NCBI GenBank assembly: GCA_000091165.1
Contig: FP565575.1
Span: 240,001 to 272,000 of the forward strand
Length of the DNA stretch: 32,000 nucleotides
Source of the DNA: Candidatus Methylomirabilis oxygeniifera
Lineage (GTDB): Bacteria; Methylomirabilota; Methylomirabilia; Methylomirabilales; Methylomirabilaceae
Direction: 5' to 3'
The position numbers were made by a program, and so were the translations under genes. The stretch's first letter is position 1; each line of letters opens with the position of its first letter. The notes under the pieces were generated by a model. That model saw only the letters and a program-made list of their open reading frames with translations, made no database searches and was not told the origin of the DNA. Below, in pieces: positions 7,397 through 25,598 of this stretch.

Positions 7397-9223
7397 ATGC
7401 AAACTCCCCTGCAACAATTCCTTCGCGTGCTTCGCTGCGCCGCTCCCTACCGGGCGCGGGTCATTCTTGCCGTCGTTTCCCTGATCCTCATCGCCGTCCT
7501 CAATGCGGTGTCTATCGGTTCGCTCCAGCCGATCTTTGACGGTCTCTTCGCCGCGGAGGGCATCGGATCAGGGATCAGTCTGCCTGATCCGATCATGACC
7601 CTGCTCGGACATCGGCTGGTCCGGTTTCAGGCGTTCCTCCAGGCTCATCGGATCAGCACCCTCACCTTTATCGGCGGGGCCCTCTTCTTCGTCTTTGTGG
7701 CGAAAGGCGCGCTTATTTACATCCAACAACTGCAACTACGGTATGTGGCGGAGGGGATTCAGCGGGATATCCGAAACGATCTGTACACGCATCTGCACGC
7801 GCTGTCCCTCGGCTTTTTTACGCGACGCTCGACAGGCGAGATCATGTCCCGCCTCAGCTCTGACGTCGAAAGCCTTGGCGACGCTTCGACCGAACTCTTC
7901 CGTAACGCCCTGAGGGAGCCGTTCAATATTGTCGGGCTCATCGTATTGCTCTTTCTGATCAAGTGGCAGCTCGCGATCCTGTCGTTGCTCGTCCTGCCGG
8001 TGGCGCTCCTGCCGATTGTGAAGTTCGGTTCCAAGATCCGTCGCAGGGGAACCCTGGTCCAAGAGGGGCGCGCCGAATTGAATACGATCCTGCAGGAAAC
8101 GATTTCCGGCGTCAGGATCGTCAAGGCCTTCGGCATGGAAGAGTATGAGCGGAGACGGTACCGCCATGCCAGTGAGCAGCTTTTCAAAGCCGTGATGCGG
8201 ATCGCCAAGGTTGATGCGCTGACCTCGCCGGTCCTTGAGGTTCTCGGGTCCGTAGGTATTGTTGTCGCGATCTGGGTCGGCGGCTATCTGGTATTTTCAA
8301 AAAGTTTGACCCCTGGAGCGTTCATGGCGTTCCTCGGAGCGCTCGCGTCCCTCTATCAACCGGTCAAGCGGATCAGCCAGATCAATAACAATATTCAGCG
8401 CGGAATGGCCGGCGCCGCGCGGGTATTTGAGATCATGGACCTCCGTCCCGATCTGGTGGAGCAGCCTGGTGCCGCGACGCTCGGGCGGATGCAGGAAGGG
8501 ATACGGTTCCACAACGTGTCCTTCGCCTATGGATCGGAACGGACCGTGCTGCGCGGCATCAGTTTCGGAGCCAAGCTGGGTGAGATCGTTGCGGTCGTCG
8601 GCAGCAGCGGGGCCGGGAAGAGCACCATGGTCAACCTCATCCCGCGCTTCTACGATCCGACGGAGGGCGTCATTACAATCGATGGGGTCGATATCGCGCG
8701 GGCAACCCTGTCGTCGTTGCGCGCACAGATGGGGATCGTGACCCAGGACACGATCTTATTCGACGACACCATCCTGAACAATATCGCCTACGGGCAGCGT
8801 GACGTCGCGTCGGATCTCGTCGTAGAGGCCGCCAGGATTGCCAACGCCGACGAGTTCATCGAGGCCCTCCCGGAGCGGTACGAGACCAGGATCGGCGAGC
8901 GGGGTGTCCGGCTGTCCGGCGGAGAGAAGCAGCGGATCGCCATCGCGAGGGCGATCCTGAAGAACCCGCCTATCCTGATCCTGGATGAAGCGACATCGGC
9001 CCTCGACGCAGAGTCGGAGCGGCTGGTGCAGGAGGCGCTGGATCGGCTGATGCAGAATCGGACCACCTTTGTGATCGCGCACCGGCTGTCCACCGTGATT
9101 CGGGCCGACAAGATTCTGGTGCTGGACGCCGGAAGCTGCGTCGAGCAAGGGACGCACCCGGAGCTGATGGCGCTAGGCGGGGTCTATTGCCGACTGTACA
9201 ATACACAGCGTGCTCACGCCTGA
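7397..9223 (+). CDS. msbA: Lipid A/LPS-core flippase, ABC exporter (MsbA-type)
   Basis: Six-TM exporter domain plus an NBD with Walker A GSSGAGKST, signature LSGGEKQR and Walker B ILILDEATSALD. 608 aa in an LPS gene context. Confidence 0.88.
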   Translation: MQTPLQQFLRVLRCAAPYRARVILAVVSLILIAVLNAVSIGSLQPIFDGLFAAEGIGSGISLPDPIMTLLGHRLVRFQAFLQAHRISTLTFIGGALFFVFVAKGALIYIQQLQLRYVAEGIQRDIRNDLYTHLHALSLGFFTRRSTGEIMSRLSSDVESLGDASTELFRNALREPFNIVGLIVLLFLIKWQLAILSLLVLPVALLPIVKFGSKIRRRGTLVQEGRAELNTILQETISGVRIVKAFGMEEYERRRYRHASEQLFKAVMRIAKVDALTSPVLEVLGSVGIVVAIWVGGYLVFSKSLTPGAFMAFLGALASLYQPVKRISQINNNIQRGMAGAARVFEIMDLRPDLVEQPGAATLGRMQEGIRFHNVSFAYGSERTVLRGISFGAKLGEIVAVVGSSGAGKSTMVNLIPRFYDPTEGVITIDGVDIARATLSSLRAQMGIVTQDTILFDDTILNNIAYGQRDVASDLVVEAARIANADEFIEALPERYETRIGERGVRLSGGEKQRIAIARAILKNPPILILDEATSALDAESERLVQEALDRLMQNRTTFVIAHRLSTVIRADKILVLDAGSCVEQGTHPELMALGGVYCRLYNTQRAHA

Positions 9224-9230
9224 GGCAACG

Positions 9231-10289
9231 ATGGCCGATCTGACTGCGACGATCATCACCCATAACGAGGAAAAGACTATCCAGGCGTGCCTGGAGAGCG
9301 TGACGTGGGCGAAGGAGATCGTGATAGTGGACTCCGGCAGTTCGGACCGCACCCTGGAGATCTGCCGGGGCTACACCGATAAGATTGTGCATCATCCATG
9401 GGCCGGATTCATCGAGCAGAAGAATTTTGCCGTCTCCCTTGCCACGTATGATTGGATTCTGAACCTTGACGCCGACGAACGAGTGCCCGAAGAGCTTCGT
9501 CTGGCCATTGAGCGGGAGCTGTCGGCGCCCCGCCACGACGGGTATCGGATTGCGCGCAGGAACTACTTCCTGGGACGGTGGATACGACATGGGGGGTGGT
9601 ATCCCGATCGAGTGCTTCGCCTGTTTGATCGACGCACAGGGCGGTTCGGGGGCGTGAATCCCCACGCCTACTTCGTCATTCCTGAAGGCTCCGTAGGCTT
9701 CATTGACAGCGATCTGATCCATTACACCTATCAAGACCTCTCGCAATATCTCCAAAAGCAGGACTGGTACTCAGGGATCTCGGCATCGGAACGGGTCAAG
9801 TGGGGGCGGCGGTCCGATTCGATCACACAGATAGAACTGCTGCTGCGGGCGATGCTGAAGTTTGTACAGGTGTATCTACTCAAGCGGGGATTTCTGGATG
9901 GGATGCATGGGTGGATTGTCGCAGCGGGTGCGTCCTACTTCAATATTTTTAAGTATGCCAAGGTATGGGAGGCGGGGTGTACCCGCGATCGAATCGTGAA
10001 AGAGGCTCCGACCGACGGCCTCGCCGGGTCGAGCATCCATGGGCAGCTCTGGCGGCTTGACGCCGAGACCCAGGCCGGCGCCGAGGCGGTGGAACACCTC
10101 GGCGATGTCGGCTGGATCGATGTCGCCGTTCAACCCTTCTTGACCTTTGCGAAGGTGTATCTGTATCGGCAGGCCTGTCGCAATGGGTTGCGCGGGCTGG
10201 TTGACGCAACATTGATGAGTTTCCATATCTTTGTTCGGCATGTGAAGGCATGGGAACTGCTGTTGCGCCGTGAAAGGCTGCGTGAGTGA
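9231..10289 (+). CDS. Glycosyltransferase family 2 (LPS-core KdtX/WaaE-like) with an extended C-terminus
   Basis: LTATIITHNEEKTIQACLESV...IVIVDSGSSDRT...LNLDADERV (DxD). ATG 9231 lies 7 nt after the msbA stop. The C-terminal helical module appears twice (see findings). Confidence 0.8.
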   Translation: MADLTATIITHNEEKTIQACLESVTWAKEIVIVDSGSSDRTLEICRGYTDKIVHHPWAGFIEQKNFAVSLATYDWILNLDADERVPEELRLAIERELSAPRHDGYRIARRNYFLGRWIRHGGWYPDRVLRLFDRRTGRFGGVNPHAYFVIPEGSVGFIDSDLIHYTYQDLSQYLQKQDWYSGISASERVKWGRRSDSITQIELLLRAMLKFVQVYLLKRGFLDGMHGWIVAAGASYFNIFKYAKVWEAGCTRDRIVKEAPTDGLAGSSIHGQLWRLDAETQAGAEAVEHLGDVGWIDVAVQPFLTFAKVYLYRQACRNGLRGLVDATLMSFHIFVRHVKAWELLLRRERLRE

Positions 10290-10300
10290 GCAAGGAAGAG

Positions 10301-12610
10301 ATGGCGGACGCACGGGGCGGACAGCGTGCGGTGTGGAAGGATCGGTACGTGGCGTATTCGGAGACAGCGCTTCAATACGGCCTCGTTGCGCTGATCGTCC
10401 TGCTGCCGTCGGCCTCACTGCGATCCGTGAAGGGCGTTCTCCTGATCGGCCTGATCGTCATCTGGATTGTACGCATGCTGGTTGTACGGGATGTTGCTCT
10501 GCGGAGGACGCCGTTGGATGCGCCGCTCATGGCGTACATCGGCTGGATTGCCGTCACTCTCATCACGGCCACTCATGTAGTGTACAGCCTGGGAGAGTTG
10601 CTGAAGCTCATGGTGAGTGTGCTTGTATTCTACCTCGTCGTCAATCAGGTGCGAGACAGGCACGCGGCGCGAAGGCTCCTTTCCGCCGTCGCACTGACCA
10701 CGTTCGCGGTCAGCAGCTACGGCATCTTCAAGTTCTTCCTGATTCAGCAAGGGAGCCTTACCGACAGGGCCGTCAGGGCCAATTCGTTGACTCCTGATTA
10801 CCACTGGCTGAGCACCTATCTGATTTTGACCATCCCGGTCGTGCTGTGCCTTGCGATGATACAGGACGATCGGCGATCCAGACTGTTTCTCTGGATCACG
10901 TGCGCGCTTTCGTGCGGCGCGCTTTTTCTCACGTACACCAGGGGGGCGTGGGTGGCCCTTCTGGTCGAACTGGCCGTGTATGGGTGGGCCAGGCGAAAGC
11001 GGTCATACGTCATCCTGGCCGGGGGGACCATCCTCGCGGTGTTGGTCGGTCTGCTGTTGCTCGTATCAAAAAACGGCACCATGGCTTTCGGCCCGAGCGC
11101 CGACACGTTGAATCCTTACACGTTGATGACGCGGATAAAGACTGCCGGCCTGGCTGTCCAGGAGGTCTCGAAACATCCGCTGATGGGGATCGGTTATGGC
11201 GGGAAGACCATGGCCAAGGTCTATGCGGATGCCCCGGAAGTGAAAGAAGCCAACCACCCTCACAATCTGTACGTTGAAGTTGCGCTTGGGACCGGGATTC
11301 CGGGCCTGATTCTGCTGCTGTGGGTGTTGTTTGCCGCACTCAGGGCGATGTGGAGGGGGATGGCCGCGGCTGCCGATCCGTTCGGACGCGCGGTTCTACT
11401 CGGCGTGGGAACGGCAGTTGTGGGGGTCATTGTCAGCAACCTGTTCGATCACATCTTTGCGGGAGGCATGGCCCACCTCTTCTGGGCGCTGATGGCCTTA
11501 GCGGTCGGTGTCGATGCGGGTCAAGCAAGGCAGAAGGCAGGGATCGGGGAACCGGGGAGGATCCTTGTGATCAAGCTCCGGTATCTGGGCGATGTATTGC
11601 TGAGCACGCCCGTCCTGGCCGCTCTTCGGACGACATTTCCGAAGGCCGGCCTCTCAATGCTCGTCAATCCCGGCACCGAGGCGATGATCGCCACTAATCC
11701 TCATCTGGACGAGGTGCTGATCGCGGAGCGGGCAGGGTCGCCGCTGCGTCAATTGGAATTCGTCGCCGCGCTCCGTCGGCGCCGCTTTGATCTCGTGGTT
11801 GATCTGACCGATGGAGATCGAGCGGCGATCCTGAGTCGACTGACCGGGGCTGCCATCAGGGTCGGGTTCAGTCGAGAAGGTCGCTGGCGTGGGCGACTGT
11901 ACACGCATCTGGTTCCGGTGCAGGAGCAGCCGATGCCGATGGTCCGTCAGCACCTGATGGCCCTGGAGATACTGGGGATTCCGCCTATTGACTCATTGCC
12001 TGCGCTCAGGATTCGAGCGACCGATGAGGCGGCGGCCTGCGCTGCCCTCGGCGCTATCGAGATCTCGCCCGGTGAGCGCTTCGTGGCTGTGCATCCCGGC
12101 GCCCGATGGTGGTTCAAGAGCTGGCCTGCTGCGCGATTTGCGAGTCTTATCGACTATATCCAGGGGAAGCTCGGGATCAAGGTGGTGCTGCTCGGTTCAG
12201 TTGCAGATCAACAGACCGCAGAGGCGATCCTGGACGAGGTAGAAACCGGCTGCCGTTCGCTGGTGGGGCGACTGACGCTCCTTGAGCTGGCCGGGCTGCT
12301 TCGACAGGCGACCCTCCTTGTCGGCAACGATAACGGACCGATGCATATCGCGGCTGCGATGGGGACGCCCGTGGTCGGTCTGTTTGGTCCTGCCGATCCA
12401 AGGGTCTGGGGACCGGCCGGTGAGGGGCATGCCGTACTCTACAAAGGGGTGGATTGCCGGCCCTGCTTCCCAGGTGGGTGCCGGCGTGGAGAGCAGAACT
12501 GTATGCGATTGATCGCGCTTGACGAGGTGATTTCTGTTGTGGAGCGGATGCTCAGACAGCCCTGCCTGTGCGACAGCAGACAGGCGCCGGCGCGGACGGA
12601 GGTTCTATGA
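10301..12610 (+). CDS. Fusion protein: O-antigen ligase/polymerase-like (Wzy_C) membrane domain + GT9 ADP-heptose:LPS heptosyltransferase domain
   Basis: N-terminal about 420 aa is polytopic with YTRGAWVALLVELAVYG and NHPHNLYVEVALGTGIPGL (WaaL/Wzy_C-type). The C-terminal about 340 aa has ILVIKLRYLGDVLLSTPVLAAL and LVGNDNGPMHIAAAMGTPVVGLFGP (GT9). ATG 10301 follows AAGGAAG. GTG 10286 is also possible. Confidence 0.8.
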   Translation: MADARGGQRAVWKDRYVAYSETALQYGLVALIVLLPSASLRSVKGVLLIGLIVIWIVRMLVVRDVALRRTPLDAPLMAYIGWIAVTLITATHVVYSLGELLKLMVSVLVFYLVVNQVRDRHAARRLLSAVALTTFAVSSYGIFKFFLIQQGSLTDRAVRANSLTPDYHWLSTYLILTIPVVLCLAMIQDDRRSRLFLWITCALSCGALFLTYTRGAWVALLVELAVYGWARRKRSYVILAGGTILAVLVGLLLLVSKNGTMAFGPSADTLNPYTLMTRIKTAGLAVQEVSKHPLMGIGYGGKTMAKVYADAPEVKEANHPHNLYVEVALGTGIPGLILLLWVLFAALRAMWRGMAAAADPFGRAVLLGVGTAVVGVIVSNLFDHIFAGGMAHLFWALMALAVGVDAGQARQKAGIGEPGRILVIKLRYLGDVLLSTPVLAALRTTFPKAGLSMLVNPGTEAMIATNPHLDEVLIAERAGSPLRQLEFVAALRRRRFDLVVDLTDGDRAAILSRLTGAAIRVGFSREGRWRGRLYTHLVPVQEQPMPMVRQHLMALEILGIPPIDSLPALRIRATDEAAACAALGAIEISPGERFVAVHPGARWWFKSWPAARFASLIDYIQGKLGIKVVLLGSVADQQTAEAILDEVETGCRSLVGRLTLLELAGLLRQATLLVGNDNGPMHIAAAMGTPVVGLFGPADPRVWGPAGEGHAVLYKGVDCRPCFPGGCRRGEQNCMRLIALDEVISVVERMLRQPCLCDSRQAPARTEVL

Positions 12611-13664: not shown

Positions 13665-15275
13665 ATGGGGGGATTACTTGAAAAAGAGTGGTTGGTTTTG
13701 TGCGTTCTACTCATCTGGACACTTTTTGTCTACTACTCGCATCTGGGCATACCCCTCAGAGGTGACGAGGGGATGTATGCGGCCATTGCGCGAAGAATGG
13801 TTCGGACCGGGGACTGGTTGCACCTTGTGTACGAGGGGCGGCCTTACATGAATAAACCCCCCCTGCATTTCTGGCTTATGGCGCTGTCCCTTGTATTGTG
13901 GGGGCCGAGTGAGTTTGCCGTTCGATTTCCGTCGGCGACCTTTGGGATCGGTATGGTCTGTCTTGCGTACGTCAGCGGCCGGATGCTGTTCGATCGACGG
14001 CTTGGCGTGATCGCAGCGATCATCACGACCTCCACGCTTACCGCTGTCTGGCACGCCCATCAAGCGAGATTCGATGTGGAGCTTGCCTTTTGGATGAATC
14101 TTGGGTTCTTCTTCTTTTATCTGGCGTACCGCGGAGGTGAGCGACGTGTCGGCTATCTCTGTTGTGCCTTTCTGTCGATCGCCGTGGGAGTGATGCTGAA
14201 GGGTCCTGTAGGCGCCATCCTGCCGGGCGTGACGGCCCTTGCCTTTGTGGTAATGACGCGGCGATCCAAGGTATGTATCGAAATCCCGTACCTGCTGGGC
14301 GGTCTGGTCATATTTCTCCTCGTCACCGTACCCTACTATGTAAGCTTGGGTGAAACGTTCAACCGACACTTTTTTATCGAGGAGAATCTGACCCGCGTCT
14401 TCCATGCGCCCAACTCACCGTTTCTCTATCTCGTCATGATCTTTGCAGGGTTTCTCCCCTGGAGCCTCTTTCTCCCGTGTGTCGGTCTGTACCTCTGGAG
14501 GTCGCGTTCTCGTGCTCTTGGCGAAGCGGATCTGCTGCTCCGCATCTGGTGCACCGGCTTTTTTGTGCTCTTAAGTCTACCGGCGGGGAAGGCTGAGCGA
14601 TTTCTTGTCTATCTCATCCCGCCCTTGGCTCTCTTGATGGCCCGATACTGGGATTATCTGTTTCAGCATACCGATACCGTGACGTCAGCGGAACGTCGCG
14701 TGCTCAAGTTCGCGACCTTCTTTCTGGGTCTCGTCGGCGTGCTGGGCGTGTTTATTGGACCATGGATTCTGCGTCAGCGATTCCTTATGGCCGGCGATGT
14801 CTGGCCGGTACCCCTGGCGTTGCTTATGGGCATCGGGTGTATCGCTGTGCTGTACGCCGCCTACAGGTGCCGCCCGCCTGCTATCTTTTCGAGTGTGACG
14901 GCGGTCGCCGTCGTCATGACCGTCGGTCTTGTTCAGTACTTTTATCCCGCGCTTGCCAGATACGAATCTGCCAAGGCGATTGCCCAGCAGGTCCGCGCGG
15001 TTGTGGGCGACTCCCCTCTGGTGATTTATCATCCGGGCCGGTCGTTAGGTGAGGATATCCTGTATTATCTGGATCGACCGTCGCCGGTGCCGGAACTCCA
15101 GACCCCTGACGAGATCTACGCGGCCTTTGAGACCCGCCAGCAGGTCTTCGGTCTTCTGAGCAAGAGCAGCTTTGAGGAGCTTGAGCGCCAGGGTAAACTG
15201 CCGATTATGCGTCTCGCGGATCATTCATATCGCCAGCGGGACTTTGTCCTGGTGAAGAATCGGGCGCGGTTATAA
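13665..15275 (+). CDS. Polytopic glycosyltransferase of the ArnT/PMT family (GT39/GT83-like lipid- or glycan-modifying enzyme)
   Basis: About 12 predicted TM helices. First-loop motif RGDEGMYAAIARRMVRTGDWLHLVYEGRPYMNKPPLHFWLMA. Start set at ATG 13665 because 13563-13664 is occupied by repeat elements. ATG 13563 (ATGA overlap with kdsD) cannot be excluded. Confidence 0.75.
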   Translation: MGGLLEKEWLVLCVLLIWTLFVYYSHLGIPLRGDEGMYAAIARRMVRTGDWLHLVYEGRPYMNKPPLHFWLMALSLVLWGPSEFAVRFPSATFGIGMVCLAYVSGRMLFDRRLGVIAAIITTSTLTAVWHAHQARFDVELAFWMNLGFFFFYLAYRGGERRVGYLCCAFLSIAVGVMLKGPVGAILPGVTALAFVVMTRRSKVCIEIPYLLGGLVIFLLVTVPYYVSLGETFNRHFFIEENLTRVFHAPNSPFLYLVMIFAGFLPWSLFLPCVGLYLWRSRSRALGEADLLLRIWCTGFFVLLSLPAGKAERFLVYLIPPLALLMARYWDYLFQHTDTVTSAERRVLKFATFFLGLVGVLGVFIGPWILRQRFLMAGDVWPVPLALLMGIGCIAVLYAAYRCRPPAIFSSVTAVAVVMTVGLVQYFYPALARYESAKAIAQQVRAVVGDSPLVIYHPGRSLGEDILYYLDRPSPVPELQTPDEIYAAFETRQQVFGLLSKSSFEELERQGKLPIMRLADHSYRQRDFVLVKNRARL

Positions 15276-15333
15276 AGGGAAGAGCAGCCCATGCGGCGCC
15301 GGCCGCACCACGGCGCACGAAAACCCCCTCGAT

Positions 15334-15406
15334 CCCCCTTTATGAAAGGGGGAGGCAAGGAAGCGTATCAGTAGTCCCCCCCTTTATGAAAGGGGGGTCA
15401 GGGGGG
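15334..15406. repeat. Two C5-7-TTTATGAAA-G5-6 palindromes
   Basis: CCCCCTTTATGAAAGGGGG (15334-15352) and CCCCCCCTTTATGAAAGGGGGG (15376-15397) followed by TCAGGGGGG (to 15406). Confidence 0.85.
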
Positions 15407-15408
15407 TT

Positions 15409-15451
15409 TGTCCGAAGCTGACGGCTGACCGCTATTTTGTGAGGAATTCCC
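15409..15451 (+). repeat. Heptamer-bearing leader shared with pyrG (TGACGGC units + TATTTT-GAGGAAT SD module)
   Basis: GTCCGAAGC TGACGGC TGACCGC TATTTTGTGAGGAATTCCC-ATG here, versus GTCTGAAGC TGACGGC TGAGTGC TGACGGC TGACAGC TATTTTCCGAGGAATACT-ATG at 4727-4785. Confidence 0.85.
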
Positions 15452-16048
15452 ATGTCCATCGACTCCAGACTACAGGAAATAGCGAAGGTGATACGTCTGC
15501 TCATAATGGACGTAGACGGCGTCCTGACTGATGGACGTATCTTCTACAATGCTGAAGGCGTGCAGAGCCAGGCCTTCTTTGTGAGAGACGGCTATGGTCT
15601 TCGCATGGCCCGGCAGGCGGGATTGCTGACGGCGATCGTGACGGGGCGTATATCGGCGGCGGTGACCCACCGCGCGAATGAATTGGGCATTACTGAAATC
15701 CACCAGGGGGCGACGAATAAGATCGAGGTGTATGAGATGCTCCTTCAGCGGTATGGCCTGACCGATGAGGCGGTGGCGTATGTCGGCGACGACCTGAACG
15801 ACCTGTCGGTGCTCGGTCGGGTCGGGCTTTCCGTGGCGCCGGCTGATGCCGATCCGGAGGTGACAACGCGGGTTGCGTATGTGACGACGCAGCTCGGAGG
15901 CCGCGGCGCGGTCCGGGAGGTGATCGATCTGATCCTGAAGGCCCAGGGCCGATGGGAGGAGTTCCTCGAAGAGCGAGGATCGGCGTCGGAGGAGGGCCGG
16001 CCGGCCGGCGGCTTTTTCTTGACAAGCGGACGAGGTATGTTACAGTGA
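15452..16048 (+). CDS. kdsC: KDO-8-phosphate phosphatase (HAD superfamily, YrbI family)
   Basis: [19 protein letters not shown], and [11 protein letters not shown] motifs. About 25 extra C-terminal residues relative to the usual length. Confidence 0.88.
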
Positions 16049-16057
16049 CCCGTCTGA

Positions 16058-16086
16058 GGCGGGGCGGCATCGTATGCCGGCTCGCC
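16058..16086. other. GC-rich hairpin between kdsC and metK
   Basis: GGCGGGGCGGCAT cgt ATGCCGGCTCGCC, with 11 of 13 positions paired. No U tract follows, so it is not a canonical terminator. Confidence 0.5.
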
Positions 16087-16133
16087 GTCGAAGTAACGGA
16101 GCGGATTGTATAGAAGGGGAGGAGGACCGATTC

Positions 16134-17291
<1,158 letters not shown>

Positions 17292-17298
17292 TTCCCCC

Positions 17299-17970
17299 AT
17301 GCATCGAATCGTTGCGTGCATCGTCGCACTCCTGACCATCGGCGCGGCAGGGGTCGTCAGGGGCCAGGAGCTGAAGACTGAGGAGCAGAAGACGTTTTAC
17401 GCCCTAGGGCTCGCGCTCAGCCAGAGTCTCGGCTTGTTCAATCTTAGCGAGGCCGAGCTGGAGTTGGTGAAGTCAGGTCTCGCCGACGGGGTCCTGAATC
17501 GGACGCGGAAGGTCGAGCTGCCCGCGTACATGAGCAAGGTCCAGGAGTTGCAGACGTCGCGTCAGGCCGCCGCCGCTGCCGTCGAGAAGAAGCAGGGCCA
17601 GTCGTTCCTCGACAAGGCCGCCGCCGAGAAGGGGGTAACCAAGACGGCCTCTGGCGTGATCGTCACCACGCTCAAGTCCGGCACCGGACCCTCCCCCGCG
17701 GCCGGCGACACGGTGAAGGTGCACTACACGGGCACCCTGATCGACGGCACCGTCTTCGACAGCTCCGTGCAGCGTGGACAACCGGCCACCTTCCCCCTCA
17801 ACGGCGTGATCAAATGCTGGACCGAAGGCGTCGTCACCATGAAGGTCGGCGGTAAGGCGAAGCTGGTCTGCCCTGCCGACGCGGCCTACGGCGTCCGGGG
17901 GGCGCCCCCGAAAATTAAGCCGGGCGCCACGCTGGTCTTCGACGTGGAACTGCTGGAGATCGTGAAGTAA
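17299..17970 (+). CDS. Secreted FKBP-type peptidyl-prolyl cis-trans isomerase (FkpA/Mip-like)
   Basis: Signal peptide MHRIVACIVALLTIGAAGVVRGQ, a helical N-domain, and the FKBP domain VKVHYTGTLIDGTVFDSS...GATLVFDVELLEIV. Confidence 0.88.
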   Translation: MHRIVACIVALLTIGAAGVVRGQELKTEEQKTFYALGLALSQSLGLFNLSEAELELVKSGLADGVLNRTRKVELPAYMSKVQELQTSRQAAAAAVEKKQGQSFLDKAAAEKGVTKTASGVIVTTLKSGTGPSPAAGDTVKVHYTGTLIDGTVFDSSVQRGQPATFPLNGVIKCWTEGVVTMKVGGKAKLVCPADAAYGVRGAPPKIKPGATLVFDVELLEIVK

Positions 17971-18440
17971 CGTACCTGAGAGCTGCGCCGCGTCAATCTA
18001 GTCGCTTCACCCCGCCTTCCGAGCCAGACATCCGCGCCCGCATGCGCCACCATACGTGCAAGCATCTCCTGTTCTGGCCATGTAGTTCGTACGGCTCGTC
18101 AACCTCTGTCTCGACAAGACGCGTACGCCCACTGCGCCACCCATTCCGGTCGGAAACCGCCCACCTCTTCCGATTAATCTCGGCCAGGCGTTCCGATGCT
18201 GGTGCAGGTTAGTAGTTGTAATCTGTACCGTGATGTCAAGAGGGCGTCGAACTGCCCGGTCGCCGGATTCCAGAGCATCGGGAGACCAGAAAACAGATCG
18301 TAGCAACCGAGGCAGCAGGGGAGTCCAAAGCACAGTTGATTGACTCGGATTTGGTTCGGGCGGCTCGCTGTCGGAGACCGGATAGGCTGACATAGGTGCA
18401 GCGTTTGCCGTCGCCTGCCTTCATACAAATGTCTTGTTAA

Positions 18441-18663
18441 GTGCCAGAAAAGATTATAGAGTTTTGGCCAGCTCCAAGAACGGCTGGTCGAGATAGACCG
18501 ATCAGCATACGCAATGGTTCGACTTGAAAAGTAGACCGATCGAGATCGATGCGGGACAGAGCAATGATGGCGAACGCGTGAGATCGACGAGAGACGGTGC
18601 CGAGCGCGGATCATCATGTGTCGGAAAGCCACCAGGCGCGAGAGGGGGCAGTATGGCAAGTGA
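18441..18663 (+). pseudogene. Degraded BrnT-like (DUF497) toxin gene
   Basis: The family-typical C-terminus ARIIMCRKATRRERGQYGK-stop is in frame 1 (18598-18663). Upstream pieces are scattered over the other frames (KIIEFW..., WFDLKSRPIEIDAGQSNDGERV...) and interrupted by stops at 18496, 18529 and 18565. Confidence 0.5.
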
Positions 18664-18867
18664 GGAGATGAGAAAAGATACGACTTTTCGAAGGGTGTTC
18701 GGGGCAAGTTTTACAGGCCGGGCCTAAAGATCAGCCTTCCCGTGTACCTTGATCAAGAAGCGATGGCCTTTGTACAGCGCATTGCCCGGAAGAAGAAGAC
18801 CGATATCTCGACGGTGGTCAACAAACTGATTCTCACGGACAAGTACCTTGCAGAGGTTATCGACTAA
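18653..18867 (+). pseudogene. BrnA-like (RHH/CopG-type) antitoxin gene with a 1-nt frameshift
   Basis: ATG 18653 (MASEEMRK) is in frame 2. The family-typical YDFSKGVRGKF...ISLPVYLDQEAMAFVQRIARKKKTDISTVVNKLIL body is in frame 1. One extra A in the A4 run 18673-18676 would join them (MRKRYDFSKG). Confidence 0.6.
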
Positions 18868-19267
18868 GGGTACATCTTGACGAACGACCTGCTCCACCAG
18901 ACGCCGGCTAGGTACCTCTGAGCGTGGCTCGCGATGGTCTGCGGTGCCGCCGGTGAGCAGTACGTTGAGCCCACCAGAGACGAAGGAGGCCAGCGCTCGA
19001 AGCCCACTGAGACCCTGGCGCGAGGCGCCGGAGTGTCGGTTAGTGGTACCCAAGAGAACCGCGTTCGCCGTCGAGTGAGTATAGATTATACTCCCGTAAC
19101 CTGCACCCGCTCGAAACCATTTCCGGTTTCGACTCCATGGAGGTACGTAATCTCGAATTACAGGTTGGGCCGGGATCTCATGGGTGGGCTACTTGTAAGA
19201 ACCGAGGAGATTAGAGCGGACAGTTCAACAGTTCAATCCGGATAGTCGAAACAAATAAGCGAGGGTA

Positions 19268-19495
19268 TCAAGGTGTGCAGGATCGCGGGCGCTCCGTCCG
19301 GGCGATATGGCAGCTCAGGGTTTTCAGAAGAGCTGACAGGTCAACGTTTTGGACCTTGACCGAATCTGGGGCTGTCAGTTGGGCGGGGGCGAAATTGAAG
19401 ACCGCGATTACTCCGCCCTCAACCAGTGCGTCGAGGACGGCCTGGGCGTAGTCGCAGGTCACCTTCAAATTGTAGATGCTAGGAGTTAATCCGAC
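19268..19495 (-). pseudogene. rex: C-terminal fragment of a Rex-type redox-sensing repressor
   Basis: VGLTPSIYNLK..VTCDYAQAVLDALVEGGVIAVFNFAPAQLTAPDSVKVQNVDLSALLKTLSCHI aligns by eye with the last roughly 65 aa of Rex (B. subtilis ...[49 protein letters not shown]). The N-terminal winged-helix and most of the Rossmann domain are absent. Confidence 0.6.
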
Positions 19496-19548
19496 AGCCA
19501 GGCAGAATCCTCGCGAAACCCTACAGGATCTCCATCTAACGGCGCACT

Positions 19549-19818
19549 TTAAGCCGCCACCTCTACCCTTGGTTTTACCAGTCGTGATCGGGGTGGGGCG
19601 ACCTTCTCGATCCTGACATGCACCACTGCCTGCCCAGACTCCCGGCGAGCTCTTGCCAACGCAAGGTTTCTCTCGCATAGTTCTTGGTCATCCTCTGGTA
19701 GGAGGACGACTAGGGCGTTTTCCGGGATCTGTCCGGCAACCTCGGGATGCTCAAGGAGGTAGAGATCGAACTCCGTTGACAGTTTCAGATTTTTTGTGAA
19801 CAGCTCTTGGTCTGTCAT
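19549..19818 (-). CDS. Small uncharacterised protein (89 aa), second gene of an ATGA-coupled pair; resembles the DUF5647 family from memory
   Basis: Clean ORF MTDQELFTKNLKLSTEFDLYLLEHPEVAGQIPENALVVLLPEDDQELCERNL... Its ATG (19818-19816) overlaps the stop of the upstream gene (ATGA). Confidence 0.6.
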   Translation of the reverse strand: MTDQELFTKNLKLSTEFDLYLLEHPEVAGQIPENALVVLLPEDDQELCERNLALARARRESGQAVVHVRIEKVAPPRSRLVKPRVEVAA

Positions 19819-20129
19819 GCTCTCTTCCTTTTCAGGTACGCCTCTTTGTACCGTGCCCAGTTCTCGTCGATGTCCTGATCAGCAAACGTCAACGCCTCTC
19901 CCAGGTCTTTGGTGAGCAGGGGGATTTTCTCCACGGTATCATCGGGGCGGATCCTGTCCATATGCGGAAAGCCATGGGCTGTATCGTAGCGAATAACCGG
20001 GCACCAGTTCCCCTCAATGAAGGTCTCATACTGCACCGTAAATTGCTTCACGGCCCCCTGCTCAGTAACGTGCTCATGCCGCTTTCTATCATTCAAAGTC
20101 AGGAGGTAGGTGTGGCGGGTGAGCTTCAT
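19815..20129 (-). CDS. Small uncharacterised protein (104 aa) with a His-rich motif RYDTAHGFPHMD, first gene of the pair
   Basis: ORF from ATG 20129 (MKLTRHTYLL...). The longer track ORF (to 20255) would run through the predicted promoter and repeat copy A. A strong SD, GAGGAGGG (20160-20153), serves a 6-codon uORF whose TGA overlaps this ATG. Confidence 0.55.
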   Translation of the reverse strand: MKLTRHTYLLTLNDRKRHEHVTEQGAVKQFTVQYETFIEGNWCPVIRYDTAHGFPHMDRIRPDDTVEKIPLLTKDLGEALTFADQDIDENWARYKEAYLKRKRA

Positions 20130-20175
20130 CGGGCAGCATCTTTCACAGCGTTCCCTCCTCTCGGAAGTTACTCTA

Positions 20176-20203
20176 ACCTTATTCGATTCAGTGCAAAAGT
20201 CAA
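20176..20203 (-). promoter_or_regulatory. Candidate sigma-70 promoter for the minus-strand gene pair
   Basis: On the minus strand: TTGACT (20203-20198), 16 nt, TAAGGT (20181-20176). Confidence 0.3.
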
Positions 20204-20222
20204 AGAACTTCGTCGTTATGCA

Positions 20223-20376
20223 GATCACACCCCCGTAATCTTGAGTCTGCTGCATTGGTCACAGTGCCCTGTCTCCCCCCCACGCTTGGTTCGCTACCCT
20301 CAATCGCAGCGTTTTGGACCGGCATCCTGCTTACGAGGCAACCGGCGATCATCGACCGGAGTTTGTAGTACATTTG
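20223..20376 (+). repeat. Direct repeat copy A (about 150 bp, non-coding)
   Basis: Hand-aligns with 21605-21756: about 23 mismatches plus one 2-nt gap over the first 137 positions, mostly transitions. Mismatches show no 3-nt periodicity. Confidence 0.85.
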
Positions 20377-20537
20377 GCCCGAAATAGCCACTGAGGCGCA
20401 TCTGCTGGTGGAATAGGTGCCAAAGTTCCATGTTGGGCTAGGATAGATGCGCCTTGAGAGGGCACGCGCCTGGTCCATCACAGCCCATGCTAGTCATGCC
20501 CCGGGGCCAGCCAAATGTGTCCGATGACTATATGTGG

Positions 20538-20566
20538 TTGACATCATATGACTGTAAGTACATAAT
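20538..20566 (+). promoter_or_regulatory. Near-consensus sigma-70 promoter directly abutting the higB-like ATG (leaderless-type layout)
   Basis: TTGACA (20538-20543), 17 nt, CATAAT (20561-20566), with ATG at 20573 only 6 nt after the -10. The palindrome TCATATGA (20544-20551) lies in the spacer. Confidence 0.5.
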
Positions 20567-20572
20567 ATCTGA

Positions 20573-20935
20573 ATGAAGTGGGACATTGAGTTCCATCAGG
20601 ACTTCGATCCCGAGTTTGACGCGCTGCCCGAAGACGTGCAGGACGAAATCCGTGCCCTTGCCGGTGCACTCGAAGCAATAGGTCCCCTGCTCGGTAGGCC
20701 CCGCGTCGATACGCTCAACGGTTCTCGTTACGCGAATATGAAGGAACTGAGGGTCGATGCGTCTGACGGTGTCTGGCGCGTCGCCTTCGCCTTCGATCCC
20801 AGACGCAAGGCCGTTCTTCTGGCTGCTGGGGACAAATCAGGTGTCAGCGAAAAACGATTTTACCGGCAGCTTTTAGAGAAGGCCGACCGGAGATTTGATC
20901 ATCATCTCTCACGCATCAGGAAGGGAAGGGCTTAG
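20573..20935 (+). CDS. RelE/ParE-superfamily toxin (HigB/Gp49-like)
   Basis: 120 aa. GRPRVDTLNGSRYANMKELRV...GVWRVAFAFDPRRKAVLLAAGDKSGVSEKRFYRQLLEKADRRFDHHL, followed 3 nt later by an XRE-type partner. Confidence 0.75.
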   Translation: MKWDIEFHQDFDPEFDALPEDVQDEIRALAGALEAIGPLLGRPRVDTLNGSRYANMKELRVDASDGVWRVAFAFDPRRKAVLLAAGDKSGVSEKRFYRQLLEKADRRFDHHLSRIRKGRA

Positions 20936-20937
20936 CC

Positions 20938-21299
20938 ATGGCGATCACACTGAAAGACAAAATGAAGGACCTCAGCCCCGCTCGGGGAAAGGCATCGAAG
21001 CGCGTACAGCAGAGCTGGTGAAGGAGCACATGACCTTACAGGAACTGCGGCGCGCCCGTAAGCTGACGCAGGTCAGAGTGGCTAAAGAACTCGGTATTAC
21101 CCAGGACAGCGTGTCGCGCCTTGAAAAGCGCAGCGACCTCCTGCTGTCCACGCTACGGAAGACTGTCCAGGCGATGGGCGGGACGCTGTCTCTTGTCGCG
21201 GAATTCCCTGACCGCCCGCCGGTCGCCCTGTCCGGCATCGCCGAAGACGATCCGACGCCCAAACCGGCAGGCCGGAAAGACGCGCACATCCATGCTTAG
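20938..21299 (+). CDS. HigA-like XRE-family HTH antitoxin, apparently frameshifted near its 5' end
   Basis: ATG 20938 (MAITLKDKMKDLSPAR, frame 1) stops at 21019. The body KGIEARTAELVKEHMTLQELRRARKLTQVRVAKELGITQDSVSRLEKRSDLLLSTLRKTVQAMGGTLSLVAEFPDRPPVAL is in frame 3. One extra G in GGGG 20984-20987 joins them. Internal starts GTG 21018 or ATG 21030 (after AAGGAG) could still give an HTH-only product. Confidence 0.65.
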
Positions 21300-21486
21300 A
21301 GGCCGGCAGACGAGGCGAAACGAAGGACAATAGGGACAGCGACTATTAAAATGAGAAACGATAAGAACGCCGACCGTCAAAATCAGCTGCCGCGCTTTTC
21401 ACGATGGGCCAATTTTGCGGTTGGCGGTAGTAGGCCGCTTTGTACGTGATTCGGACCCTCGCCCACGTCGGGGGTGAAGGCTAGGA

Positions 21487-21525
21487 CCCGTTGATCTCGG
21501 TGGGATTATCAAAGAGATCAACGGG
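21487..21525. other. Perfect 12-bp inverted repeat with a 15-nt loop
   Basis: CCCGTTGATCTC (21487-21498) ggtgggattatcaaa GAGATCAACGGG (21514-21525). No flanking T tract on either strand. Confidence 0.7.
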
Positions 21526-21604
21526 AGGCCTCTTGGGAGCCGCACGTGAGGCGCCAGAGTGGAAAATTGGTGATACTCACGCGCCCGCCACCGAGTGAGG
21601 TGTG

Positions 21605-21756
21605 GATTACACCCCCGTAATCTTGAGCCTCTCGCCTTGGTCGCAGTGCCCTATTTCCCCTACGCTCGGTTTACTACCCTTCATCGAGGTGTCTTGGACC
21701 GGTATCCTGCTTGCGAGGCAACCGGCGATCATCGATTGGAATGGGTGGTGGATTTG
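21605..21756 (+). repeat. Direct repeat copy B (about 150 bp)
   Basis: See copy A. The 5' 23 nt (GATYACACCCCCGTAATCTTGAG) and the 3' roughly 42 nt (TTGGACCGGYATCCTGCTTRCGAGGCAACCGGCGATCATCGA) are the best conserved parts. Confidence 0.85.
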
Positions 21757-21871
21757 ATCGGGATACGCATCCTCAAAAGAAGCACTGCTGAATCATGTAT
21801 GGACCGAGCATGGACAGAGTGTGGACGCAGGCGACGGGTCGAGGGGAGCCGGACGGCTCACTGGCACCAAC

Positions 21872-21903
21872 AAAAAATCCTATCCCCGAAAAGAGATAGG
21901 ATT
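21872..21903 (-). terminator. Rho-independent terminator of ahcY
   Basis: Minus strand: AATCCTATC (21903-21895), 10-nt loop, GATAGGATT (21884-21876) running into TTTTTTGTT. Additional palindromes ATAGGATCCTAT (21911-21922) and GGCAAT-cta-ATTGCC (21924-21938) lie between the stop codon and the terminator. Confidence 0.7.
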
Positions 21904-21940
21904 CAAAGGGATAGGATCCTATAGGCAATCTAATTGCCGA

Positions 21941-23389
21941 TTAATAACGATAATGATCCGGCTTATAGGGACCATCCGGAGAGATTCCGATATATTGAGC
22001 CTGCTTGGGACTCAACCGGGTCAGCTTGATTCCCAGTTTTTCCAAATGCAGTCGAGCGACTTCCTCATCCAGCTTTTTCGGTAAGGTATACACACCTATG
22101 GGTCGCGGATTGTTCCACAGATCGATCTGGGCCAAGGTCTGGTTGGTAAATGAATTCGACATGACGAAACTGGGATGACCTGTGGCACAACCCAGATTGA
22201 CAAGACGTCCTTGAGCCAGAAGATAGAGGGTCTTCCCATTGGGGAGTACATATTTATCAACCTGGGGCTTGATGTTGACGTGTTGCACACCCGGAAGGGA
22301 TTTCAATCCGGCCACATCGATTTCGCTGTCGAAATGCCCGATATTGCAAATGATACTTTCATCTTTCATCATCATCATGTGATCGACGGTAATGACATCC
22401 ACGTTACCGGTGGCGGTGACAAAAATATTTCCCACCCTGGCGGCATCTTCCATTACGGTGACTTCAAAGCCTTCCATCGCCGCTTGTAAAGCGTTGATGG
22501 GATCAATCTCCGTCACGATCACGCGCGCCCCGTAACTGCGCATGCTATGCGCGCACCCCTTCCCGACGTCTCCGTAGCCGGCTACGACCACCACTTTACC
22601 TGCGATCATCACATCGGTGGCGCGTTTGATACCGTCGGCCAATGATTCACGGCATCCGTACAGATTATCGAACTTGCTCTTGGTGACACTGTCGTTCACA
22701 TTAATGGCCGGCACCAACAGCTCCCCTTTGTCCATCATCTGATATAAACGATGGACGCCGGTGGTGGTTTCCTCCGACACGCCTTTCCACTCTTTGCTTA
22801 TACGGGTCCAAAGACCAGGATGGGACTTCAGGGTTTTTCTCAACAAGTTGAGAATACAGCCTTCCTCTTCGCTTTCCGGCGTTCGATCCAGGAAAGACGC
22901 GTCTTTTTCGGCTTTGACTCCCCAATGAATGAGCAGAGTAGCATCGCCACCATCATCCACAATAAGCTGGGGTCCCAGGACCTCACCGTGTTTGCCGGGG
23001 TGAACCAGCGCTCTAAAAGTACAGTCCCAATATTCTTCCAGGGTTTCACCTTTCCAGGCGAATACGGGAACTCCAGCCACAGCAATGGCTGCCGCCGCAT
23101 GGTCTTGGGTTGAAAAGATATTGCAAGAGGCCCAGCGAACATCCGCACCCAGGTCGACCAGGGTTTCGATCAATACGGCTGTTTGAATGGTCATATGCAG
23201 CGAACCGGTGATCCGGACGCCTTTGAGGGATTTCAATTTCCCGTACTTTTCACGCACCGCCATCAGGCCGGGCATTTCTTTTTCGGCGATTTCAATCTCT
23301 TTGCGACCAAAATCGGCCAAGGACAAATCCGCCACTTTGAAATCAGGCAAAGAGGATACGTTTTTTTCTGTTAACGTCTGCATGTTCAT
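21941..23389 (-). CDS. ahcY: Adenosylhomocysteinase (long form with insertion segment)
   Basis: [44 protein letters not shown]..., NAD motif [14 protein letters not shown] and C-terminal KPDHYRY. Start taken at ATG 23389 (or 23383). The track ORF extends in frame to 23527 through the leader. Hand GC counts of three 60-nt lines gave 52%, 37% and 53%, versus 58% for a line of the neighbouring GT gene. Confidence 0.93.
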
Positions 23390-23498
23390 GTCCTTTTTAT
23401 AAAGAGTGCGAGGCGCCCCTATTTTAGTCCTCACCGGTCGCGCGGAACGCGGCGAGGGGAATTTCATTTTTTGATAAGGTATTGCTTCTGACGGGGGA

Positions 23499-23527
23499 AG
23501 TATAAGCAGCAACGGACTTGCGGTCAA
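23499..23527 (-). promoter_or_regulatory. Near-consensus sigma-70 promoter for ahcY
   Basis: Minus strand: TTGACC (23527-23522), 17 nt, TATACT (23504-23499). Leaves a leader of about 100 nt before the ATG. Confidence 0.5.
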
Positions 23528-23548
23528 GGCAATATTGGCCCCAAAATG

Positions 23549-23608
23549 TGGGGTGTAGCCATGCGAGCCCGCGGGATGGGCGCGAACGTCATCGTGACCG
23601 AGATCGAT
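23549..23608 (+). pseudogene. ahcY: About 20-codon relic of a second, high-GC adenosylhomocysteinase gene
   Basis: [20 protein letters not shown] matches the SAHH NAD-domain block. The intact gene in this window reads [21 protein letters not shown], 12 of 19 identical. Similarity stops abruptly on both sides. Confidence 0.6.
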
Positions 23609-23680
23609 CTTCAGAGGAAGATGGCGATCCGTTCAGGCGCTACGATTTCGCGCCTCTCATCTCTAATGAATGTGCTATTC

Positions 23681-23695
23681 TGGGACATCTATTGC
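23681..23695 (+). promoter_or_regulatory. Candidate sigma-54 (-24/-12) promoter upstream of the GT operon
   Basis: TGGGACatctaTTGC versus consensus TGGCACG-N4-TTGC, with correct GG-N10-GC spacing. 56 nt upstream of ATG 23751. Confidence 0.4.
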
Positions 23696-23750
23696 GGCCG
23701 TATGCTCTCTCCTCGCGAGAGGGCGAGTAGGTACCATTGGTAGGCTCAAC

Positions 23751-25598
23751 ATGCGGATTCTACAAGTCGTCCACCTGTTTCCTCCTGAACAGTCTGCGGG
23801 GACAGAGCGCTATACGCAGGCCCTGGCGCGAGGGCTTGTAGCGAGGGGCCACGAGTGTCTCGTGCTTGCCGGATCGACCGAGAGCGCCTCAGAGCCTGGG
23901 GTACTGGTCAGAGGTCAAGATAGCCTCACTGTAGCTCGGCTCGTTGGGGTTCGGCAGGGATCCGGATTCCGGGTTGATAGCTACAATGCCGCGGCTGACG
24001 GCCTGATCAGGACCGTTCTTGACCTCTGGCGACCGGATCTGGTCCATCTCCAGCATTGGTACCGGCTGACGGGGAATCTGGTGGCGATATGCGCGCAGGC
24101 CGGGATCCCGGCCGTCGTCACCCTGCATGACCAGTGGCTTGCCTGCCCGAGGTTTCACCGGGTCCGGCCGGATGGCACATTCTGCGCGGAGCAGGTTGTT
24201 CCCTGTATTGCCTGCATCGATCGCGACCCGTGGCAGACCGATCAGGAGATCGACCGGGAACAGGACGTGCGTGCGCGCCTCCTTGCAGAGGAACTCAGAC
24301 TGGCCGGATGTCTCCTCGTCCCCTCCGAGGCCCAGCGGCGATTCCTGAGCCGGATCGCCGATATCCCGCCGGATCGCCTTCAGGTCGTGCCGTTGGGCTC
24401 ACCCGTCGAGTGGCCTCAAGGGGCTGTAGAGGAGCGGCGGCCGGATGGGGAGGGTCCCCTCAGAATCGGCTACTGGGGATATCTTGCGCCCCTGAAGGGG
24501 GTCCATACGCTCCTGGAAGCTGCTCGCGTGCTGGCTGGGGAATCCGACAGTCGCTTCGAGTGGCATCTCCTCGGGAGTTCCACCGACTCGATGTACGATG
24601 AAAAGCTCCGGACGTTGGCGGAAGGGCTTCCGGTCACCTTTCACGGCCCGTACCTCCACAGCGACGTCGCCGCTCTGGATTTCGATGTTGCCGTGTTTCC
24701 GTCGCTGTGCTATGAAACATACTCGTTTGTCCTCGATGAGGCCTTCCAGCTTGGACTGCCGGTGCTCGTACCGGATCGTGGGGCGCCGGCCGACCGTATC
24801 GGAGGGCGAGGTATGACCTTCCGGGCGGGCGATCCCCACGACCTGGCGCAGCGACTCCGATTCCTTCTTCAGGAGCCGCACCGGCTCGAGGAGATGCGCC
24901 ATAGCCTGCCCAGTGGAGGGGTTGTGACGATGGATGCGCACGCGCGAGACCTGGAGAAGATCTATCGCGAGACCTCAGTGTTGAAGCCTCCATCCTCCGA
25001 TGAGGCGGCCACATACCGGGTGCTGCTTACGCATCGGGAGCAGCAACTGGCCGATCGGGAGCAGCGGCTCTCCGAGCAGCAACGACACATCGAGGAGCTC
25101 ATGGCCGATCGGGAGCAGCGGCTCTCCGAGCAGCAACGACACATCGAGGAGCTCATGGCCGATCGGGAGCAGCGGCTCTCCGAGCAGCAACGACACATCG
25201 AGGAGCTCATGGCCGATCTCGCCGCACGGAATGAGAGTCTCCATGTCCAACATGAGGAGGCGGAGCGATTACAGGTCGGACTGGCCGATCTGGAGCGACT
25301 CCTCGCCGCCGCGCGCACGGATCTTGACGTGAGAGTCGCCGAGACCGAGGCAGCGCGGGCCGCGCTGGAGGCCAGGAACCGGGAGGCGGCCGAACTGCAC
25401 GCGCAGACAGTGGCGCAAGACGGGCTCCTCCTCGAACTGCAGGCGAGCTTGGCAGCCCGAACGCAAGAGGCTGACGGTCTGCGGCGTGAGGCGGAAGAGT
25501 CCGATCGCCTGCTTCTGGAGGCACGGCAGTCGATACTGGGATCGCTGGATGCCAAGCTTAAGGGTGTGGTGAGGCGGATCGGCGGGAAGGACCGGTAA
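23751..25598 (+). CDS. Glycosyltransferase family 4 with a C-terminal coiled-coil tail of about 190 aa
   Basis: MRILQVVHLFPPEQSAGTERY N-terminus typical of GT4. C-domain FPSLCYETYSFVLDEAFQLGLPVLVPDRGA. The tail is rich in E/R/L/A/Q and contains ADREQRLSEQQRHIEELM x3. Confidence 0.85.
   Translation: MRILQVVHLFPPEQSAGTERYTQALARGLVARGHECLVLAGSTESASEPGVLVRGQDSLTVARLVGVRQGSGFRVDSYNAAADGLIRTVLDLWRPDLVHLQHWYRLTGNLVAICAQAGIPAVVTLHDQWLACPRFHRVRPDGTFCAEQVVPCIACIDRDPWQTDQEIDREQDVRARLLAEELRLAGCLLVPSEAQRRFLSRIADIPPDRLQVVPLGSPVEWPQGAVEERRPDGEGPLRIGYWGYLAPLKGVHTLLEAARVLAGESDSRFEWHLLGSSTDSMYDEKLRTLAEGLPVTFHGPYLHSDVAALDFDVAVFPSLCYETYSFVLDEAFQLGLPVLVPDRGAPADRIGGRGMTFRAGDPHDLAQRLRFLLQEPHRLEEMRHSLPSGGVVTMDAHARDLEKIYRETSVLKPPSSDEAATYRVLLTHREQQLADREQRLSEQQRHIEELMADREQRLSEQQRHIEELMADREQRLSEQQRHIEELMADLAARNESLHVQHEEAERLQVGLADLERLLAAARTDLDVRVAETEAARAALEARNREAAELHAQTVAQDGLLLELQASLAARTQEADGLRREAEESDRLLLEARQSILGSLDAKLKGVVRRIGGKDR
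25050..25218 (+). repeat. Three perfect in-frame 54-bp tandem repeats (+7 nt of a fourth)
   Basis: GCCGATCGGGAGCAGCGGCTCTCCGAGCAGCAACGACACATCGAGGAGCTCATG at 25050-25103, 25104-25157 and 25158-25211, then GCCGATC. Confidence 0.95.

Follow-up and report, generated by a model that had tools for sequence, protein, structure and literature searches.

Remnants of a native short-form ahcY beside an inverted, probably foreign long-form ahcY cassette in Candidatus Methylomirabilis oxygeniifera

The window analysed here is a 32,000-nucleotide stretch of Candidatus Methylomirabilis oxygeniifera (contig FP565575.1, positions 240,001 to 272,000; M. oxyfera hereafter), part of which holds the genes of interest (Table 1). 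From left to right these are metK, a block of variable cargo genes, an intact long-form ahcY for S-adenosylhomocysteine (SAH) hydrolase on the opposite strand, a short relic of a second ahcY of a different class on the plus strand, a spacer, and the first gene of a polysaccharide locus. The relic is the subject of this report. Taken together, the comparisons below suggest that it is very probably the dead remnant of the ancestral short ahcY, which was replaced by an inverted foreign cassette lodged inside the gene and has decayed since.

Table 1. Features of the metK to glycosyltransferase region of the window, in window coordinates.
Feature	Position	Strand	Basis or remark
metK, left anchor of the native metK-ahcY-lptG slot	16134..17291	+	Pfam; synteny with relatives
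Secondary cargo, metK to cassette (4.6 kb)	17299..21866		fkpA, DUF5647/DUF7718 pair, Gp49/HTH toxin-antitoxin pair
Intrinsic-terminator-like hairpin and T-run, 3′ end of xenologue	21875..21904	-	Terminator scan (predicted)
Intact long-form ahcY (bacterial/eukaryotic type), 480 aa, putative incoming xenologue	21941..23383	-	Pfam AdoHcyase, E 5.6e-146, full length
Xenologue 5′ UTR and predicted promoter	23384..23548	-	Promoter scan, alignments; GC 49.7%
Predicted sigma-70-type site, spacer 17	-35 TTGACC 23527-23522; -10 TATACT 23504-23499	-	Promoter scan
Relic of native short (archaeal-type) ahcY, 70 bases, ~23 codons	23549..23618	+	Probably non-functional and non-coding
Relic, part 1	23549-23608	+	Codons ~219-238, NAD-binding block of short ahcY
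Relic, part 2 (CTTCAGA...)	23609-23618	+	First bases past the old internal deletion (TEID site to C-terminal EID(T/L)Q site)
ORF call, 55-65 aa	23546/23577-23743	+	Not conserved in L169; frameshifted in L177
M. oxyfera-unique spacer, relic to first glycosyltransferase gene	23619..23750		Matches the organism's own assemblies only
GT4-family glycosyltransferase, first gene of polysaccharide locus	23751..25598	+	Pfam

A preliminary description of this DNA, made from the letters alone, held that positions 23549 to 23608 encode a block of the NAD-binding domain of a short-class SAH hydrolase, and the translation it gave is exact. The similarity search that it proposed was run, and the peptide does match this family. 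Against the PDB, the 65-residue ORF holding the relic finds nine sequences, all nine of them adenosylhomocysteinases or S-inosylhomocysteine hydrolases, with short-class enzymes at the top (E = 0.005). Pfam gives the relic peptide a single match, AdoHcyase_NAD (PF00670), which at 13.1 bits (E = 0.1) falls below the 27-bit cut-off, no surprise for a stretch of 20 residues. Taken alone, the peptide evidence is suggestive, and scores this weak leave some room for a GC-rich intergenic stretch that happens to translate into a Rossmann-like motif. We regard the comparison of the DNA itself as decisive for an SAH hydrolase origin. The relic is 79-87% identical over 53-58 nucleotides to the syntenic native short ahcY of five Methylomirabilota relatives (L003-L006 among them), with blastn E-values of 1e-10 to 3e-12, and in L003-L006 the match, which takes in window positions 23550-23609, falls in the middle of the native gene. 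Smith-Waterman scores against the native gene are 80-84, about 21 standard deviations above those of shuffled sequences (mean 22, standard deviation 2.8), and none of 300 shuffles reaches them. The corresponding piece in two further relatives, L177 and L182, is moreover contiguous with 100-110 nucleotides of the native 3′ end. An accidental resemblance can therefore be practically dismissed.

The similarity stops abruptly on both sides, as the preliminary description had said. Both flanks of the relic score at the level of shuffles against the native gene, and an ungapped comparison in register gives about 80-90% identity within the relic and random levels outside it. The high GC content and the position relative to the promoter of the neighbouring gene were likewise read correctly, with GC at 62.9%, like that of native genes, and the relic beginning 21 nucleotides past the -35 hexamer of the minus-strand promoter-like site. 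The left flank, up to the start of the long ahcY, has a GC content of 49.7%. Identification as a NAD-binding block also stands; its extent does not, since the homologous stretch runs on to about 23618, where the homology between the window and L177 ends (GAGATCGATCTTCAGA versus GAGATCGTTCTCCAGA). The leading tryptophan of the relic peptide corresponds to the arginine codon of the native ‘GRGVA’ motif (AGG to TGG) and not to the tryptophan of ‘GWCG’. The relic lacks a complete ORF, the substrate-binding, cofactor-binding and C-terminal domains being incomplete, and its flanks are devoid of similarity to the native gene; on these sequence comparisons it is a gene fragment that has no standing as a functional member of the family. 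The exact long AhcY protein is encoded on ‘Methylomirabilis_oxyfera_contig_6’ and in an assembly of run SRR023516. These two independent assemblies of the one organism (L161 and L162) agree with the window at 99.99% over the relic, so its junctions are not an artefact of one assembly.

Three candidate extensions of the native sequence in the window were considered and set aside. The bases just past 23608 had been read as the native ‘PLKALE’ codons, and this was rejected on the alignments with L177 and L182, which show the C-terminal EID(T/L)Q region at this point instead. A leftward extension, in which a protein alignment places the native ‘CGYGWCG’ in the promoter region as ‘CGQGNIG’, was rejected as its DNA score equals the shuffle score; the stretch is also low in GC and is present in lineages that lack the relic. 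Finally, a tiny 5′ relic at about 21843-21862 (GAGGGGAGCCGGACGGC, compared with the ribosome-binding site and GTGGAC in L182) is too weak to claim.

SAH hydrolases fall into two deep groups, a bacterial/eukaryotic type and an archaeal type, the latter including the enzyme of Thermotoga maritima (PMC6063907; PMC10978960). The native NC10 enzyme and the relic are closest to the archaeal type, although the relic, at 23 codons, is a fragment rather than an enzyme, while the intact gene beside it encodes a protein closest to the bacterial/eukaryotic long forms. The 418-residue short AhcY of L003 shares 75-100% identity with about 120 database proteins, several of which carry NC10 or Methylomirabilis in their names, and its best structure matches are the archaeal-type 7o5l and 7r37; by sequence, the short form is the normal SAH hydrolase of NC10. 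To most of these 120 or so proteins the relic peptide is identical at 17-18 of 19 residues, as against 10-12 of 19 for long-form enzymes. Within the first 17 codons of the relic and the L003 gene there are seven synonymous and no non-synonymous differences, which indicates that most of this divergence arose while the gene was still under selection.

These comparisons also bear on where the relic came from. It directly abuts the promoter region of the cassette, and the long form has a related block, both of which would fit a relic that arrived with the foreign DNA or one that arose by duplication of part of the resident long-form gene. Yet, as the preliminary description had recognised, the fragment differs from the long form encoded next to it: identity to M. 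oxyfera's own long form is 34 of 60 nucleotides and 12 of 19 residues, compared with 46-50 of 60 nucleotides for native short forms. Its GC content is like that of native DNA and unlike that of the cassette, and in L177 and L182 it runs into the native 3′ end and then lptG, in the ancestral order. A non-native origin is thus very improbable.

The ancestral arrangement was established from relatives gathered by scanning a genome collection with MetK, which returned Methylomirabilota genomes; all those compared are metagenome assemblies, with the junctions nonetheless seen repeatedly in independent samples. In seven of these relatives (L003-L009), metK is immediately followed by an intact short ahcY on the plus strand, and lptG comes next on the minus strand in L003-L006 and L009, the contigs that reach far enough. 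Beyond ahcY, the gene order in L003, L005 and L006 is lptG, lptF, comEC, xseA, and only the lpt genes are seen in L004 and L009. An intact ahcY at the syntenic site, as the preliminary description had anticipated, is therefore present in relatives, but the slot is bounded by metK and lptG rather than by fkpA and the glycosyltransferase locus. The latter two are secondary, since relatives without them show metK-ahcY-lptG to be ancestral and the cargo varies. The intergenic regions around the native ahcY (1304-1540 and 2797-2890 in L003, with equivalents in L004) are full of repeated hairpins of the GTTCAGAG/GTGAAC type, which resemble REP-like elements or bidirectional terminators.

A second set of contigs, belonging to the M. 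oxyfera clade (L164, L171-176, L177 and L182), has metK followed by a long ahcY and then lptG, both on the minus strand. Here the long ahcY is convergent with metK and leads into lptG-lptF-...-comEC-xseA, so that the order is the native one with ahcY exchanged and inverted. The long-form gene thus occupies the same slot that the short-form gene has in other Methylomirabilota.

The long AhcY of the window is only 38-40% identical to the native NC10 short form, and its best PDB matches are long-form bacterial and eukaryotic SAH hydrolases. Close homologues (92-96% amino acid identity) sit in Methylomirabilis contigs. Outside the clade, the closest long form is that of L168 (85%), followed by matches of 75-79% that include Bacteroidales and Fibrobacterota. 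GC3 of the gene is 57%, compared with 72-87% in neighbouring genes. The codon composition, the low GC of the upstream region and the placement of the nearest outside homologues in unrelated lineages together point to a foreign origin. A scan of metagenomes with the long AhcY returned matches of at most 77% identity, none of them in a Methylomirabilis context. In L168, a 3.75-Mb contig, the long ahcY is the next gene after metK and runs in the same direction (8596-11443), and the identity of this metK to the reference metK sequences compared, those of Methylomirabilota included, is only 59-65% throughout. The L168 ahcY is GC-rich, with a GC3 of 82%, so a low-GC gene is not readily traced to that lineage, which may be related to the donor or may itself have received the gene.

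The limits of the imported DNA can be read from the alignments. The stretch upstream of the long ahcY is common to all lineages of the M. oxyfera clade up to 23543, and at the other end the homology of the window with L182 begins at 21867, next to the terminator-like hairpin. This delimits a cassette of about 1.68 kb (approximately 21867-23548). The shared upstream stretch, the promoter-like site and the terminator-like hairpin suggest that the imported unit is self-contained and consists of a terminator, the long ahcY and a promoter, both signals being predicted. An SAH riboswitch travelling with the cassette was considered and dropped, as an Rfam scan of 17000-25000 returned no SAH riboswitch or other family at E ≤ 1 and the fold of the 5′ UTR (region 23384-23499, minus strand) is no better than that of shuffles (z-score -0.2). 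The same 5′ UTR contains a GC-rich hairpin (CCCCUCGCCGCG...CGGUGAGG, 23400-23460, minus strand) that is conserved across the clade, has no Rfam match and has a folding energy at the level of shuffles.

Further pieces of the native gene survive in other members of the clade. After the common left junction, L177 has a 58-nucleotide middle piece (86% identical to L003), then 110 nucleotides from the 3′ end of the native ahcY, stop codon included (79%, E = 6e-20), and after these the terminator region and lptG. Its relic carries one extra G that shifts the frame, and its long ahcY is 96.7% identical in DNA to that of the window. L182 is arranged in the same way, with a middle piece at 88%, about 100-110 nucleotides of the native 3′ end at 73-75%, and lptG adjoining. 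On the metK side of the cassette, L169 keeps the native intergenic hairpin (a terminator), the ribosome-binding site and codons 1-21 (VDYDVKDLALANKGFLRIEWAR), in which the start codon has changed from GTG to GTA (E = 1.5e-8 to L004); of the middle piece it keeps only the first 27 nucleotides, the 3′ two-thirds being lost and the spacer beyond being unrelated to that of the window. L002 keeps the ribosome-binding site and three native codons, and in L171 and L164 only AC(A/G)TAA is left, which is the last native codon and the stop. With a 5′ remnant on the metK side and middle and 3′ remnants on the other, the cassette falls within the limits of the old gene. The right-hand junction, at native codon 219, is common to the window, L169, L177 and L182, and no part of native codons ~22-218 is retained in any lineage sampled. 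Between the 5′ relic and the cassette, L169 also has about 258 nucleotides of DNA (3222-3480, minus in locus orientation), within which lies a 41-nucleotide inverted match to window positions 21332-21371.

The remnants on the lptG side share an internal deletion. In the window, L177 and L182 the same junction joins ‘TEID’ (codon ~238) to ‘EID(T/L)Q’ (codon ~383). The coding sequence at either site is GAGATCGA(T/C), which suggests that the deletion likely arose between direct repeats. The repeats are reconstructed from relatives more distant than the M. oxyfera clade.

Whether the relic has been kept for a present function has to be weighed against this pattern of loss. It could be retained as part of a small protein, that is, the 55-65-residue ORF of Table 1, or as a promoter or leader of the glycosyltransferase operon. 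A gene caller predicts a 55-residue gene over the relic, which lies 140 nucleotides upstream of the first glycosyltransferase gene, and three of the four differences between the window and L169 in their shared 27 nucleotides are synonymous in the old frame, a sample too small to carry meaning. Against this, L169 has the same glycosyltransferase gene (89.5% DNA identity) and has nevertheless lost most of the relic; the relic is frameshifted in L177 and absent in L171 and L164; a promoter scan of 23300-23800 gives no promoter-like site on the plus strand; and the ORF is without a family match beyond the SAH-hydrolase block. Retention for function is accordingly very improbable, and the ORF call is most likely spurious. 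That the relic is frameshifted in one lineage, cut to 27 nucleotides in another and absent from two more, though the flanking genes are kept, argues instead that it is a dead remnant under no constraint.

The surroundings of the locus have changed since the replacement. The cargo between metK and the cassette is absent in L182, L164 and L002, and L171-L174 carry fkpA together with a different 8-kb set (L171 11640-19900) comprising HEPN_AbiV, a transglycosylase, a LysM protein and an N6/N4 DNA methylase; the space that separates metK from the cassette is a hot spot for insertions. In the window, direct repeats of about 154 nucleotides, 80-84% identical (20223-20376 and 21605-21756), bracket the Gp49/HTH toxin-antitoxin pair, and a small mobile unit may have left them behind. 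To the right of the cassette, the glycosyltransferase locus stands in place of the ancestral right neighbour lptG in the window and L169, whereas other members of the clade have lptG. The spacer that precedes this locus in the window (23619-23750) has no homologue in any relative fetched. Within the first glycosyltransferase gene, three tandem 54-nucleotide repeats (25048-25218) encode ADREQRLSEQQRHIEELM and sit within a long, coiled-coil-like C-terminal extension.

DNA identity along 15000-25100 is a mosaic when the window is compared with L169, L171, L177 and L182. Relative to L169, metK is 85% and ahcY 93.6% identical; the corresponding values are 95% and 93.9% for L171, and for L177 metK is 87%, fkpA 95.7% and ahcY 96.7% identical. 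Presence of the relic does not follow the similarity of metK either, as L171, with metK at 95%, has no relic and L169, with metK at 85%, has one. Recombination between lineages must be invoked to account for this, and the mosaic suggests that Methylomirabilis lineages have exchanged segments by homologous recombination.

These observations can be assembled into a probable history. The ancestral short ahcY stood between metK and lptG and was read from the plus strand. An ancestor of the M. oxyfera clade would then have acquired, inside this gene and in the opposite orientation, a low-GC foreign cassette some 1.7 kb long that brought its own terminator, long-form ahcY and predicted sigma-70-type promoter. 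Native codons ~22-218 would have been lost and the function passed to the foreign enzyme, after which the leftover native pieces would have decayed without constraint and differently in each lineage. Recombination across a pair of direct repeats at the ‘EID’ codons (GAGATCGAT) would have removed the DNA between them and fused codon ~238 to codon ~383. In the lineage of the window, the rearrangement that brought in the glycosyltransferase locus may then have cut off everything past 23618, while other lineages would have lost more, or different parts, of the native remnants. The replacement is present in at least six lineages, whose ahcY genes are 90-97% identical in DNA, and so the event is old. 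The preliminary description had proposed a xenologous replacement caught in the act; the occupation of the same slot and the native remnants on both sides of the newcomer bear out the replacement, while its age makes the locus a preserved footprint rather than an event in progress. As a statement about displacement, this holds for the copy at the metK-lptG locus.

How the codons between the two junctions were lost is a separate matter. The foreign ahcY may have been captured inside the native ahcY frame in one event that replaced codons 22-218, a reading that we offer tentatively. A possible route is that only an ahcY break repaired by the capture of a working ahcY could survive. By a different route, the foreign gene would first have been inserted without loss, splitting the native gene or lying beside it, and codons 22-218 would have been deleted later and separately. 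Recurrent deletion is common at this locus, as the remnants show, and the extra DNA between the 5′ relic and the cassette in L169 also speaks for separate steps; against them stand the complete lack of codons 22-218 in every lineage sampled and the identical right junction in all four lineages that keep the relic. Loss in separate steps is conceivable, though we would hesitate to call it probable. If the capture was instead a single event, integration was coupled to the takeover of a central methyl-cycle function, and this locus, together with its eroded relatives, would provide a natural model for the one-step swap of an essential gene.

The concept of xenologous gene displacement in situ reportedly goes back to Omelchenko, Makarova, Wolf, Rogozin and Koonin, in Genome Biology in 2003. 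The term is used in the same sense elsewhere (PMC9425974; PMC1274311), and the present locus agrees with it in that a gene of the same function but of a distant type stands in the exact ancestral slot, with the flanking metK and lptG conserved. The usual cases are inferred from trees and gene order alone. In the present one, the newcomer is flanked on either side by surviving fragments of the gene it displaced, and these show the cassette to be inside the old reading frame in opposite orientation. The decay of the remnants resembles that of bacterial pseudogenes under deletional bias, with stepwise and lineage-specific loss, a direct-repeat deletion, frameshifts and a mutated start codon. It differs from ordinary pseudogene decay in that the cause, a functional replacement inside the dead gene, is visible, and in that an erosion series extends over at least six lineages. 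Descriptions of the two SAH hydrolase groups cover both types of enzyme but not the replacement of one by the other in Methylomirabilis (PMC6063907; PMC10978960), and our literature search found no paper naming both Methylomirabilis and adenosylhomocysteinase. What the locus adds is a new example, documented unusually well, of xenologous gene displacement in situ, a process already known; it is no new kind of biology.

When a housekeeping gene has given way to a distant functional equivalent, the evidence is usually a conflict between trees, with no trace of the physical event. At this locus, 5′, middle and 3′ pieces of the old gene survive in different Methylomirabilis lineages, and they yield the insertion site in the old frame, the extent of the cassette with its own predicted promoter and terminator, and a deletion series dated by divergence. 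For the organisms themselves, the comparisons indicate that the M. oxyfera clade has exchanged an archaeal-type SAH hydrolase for a bacterial-type one, which matters for annotation and for biochemical inference about the methyl cycle.
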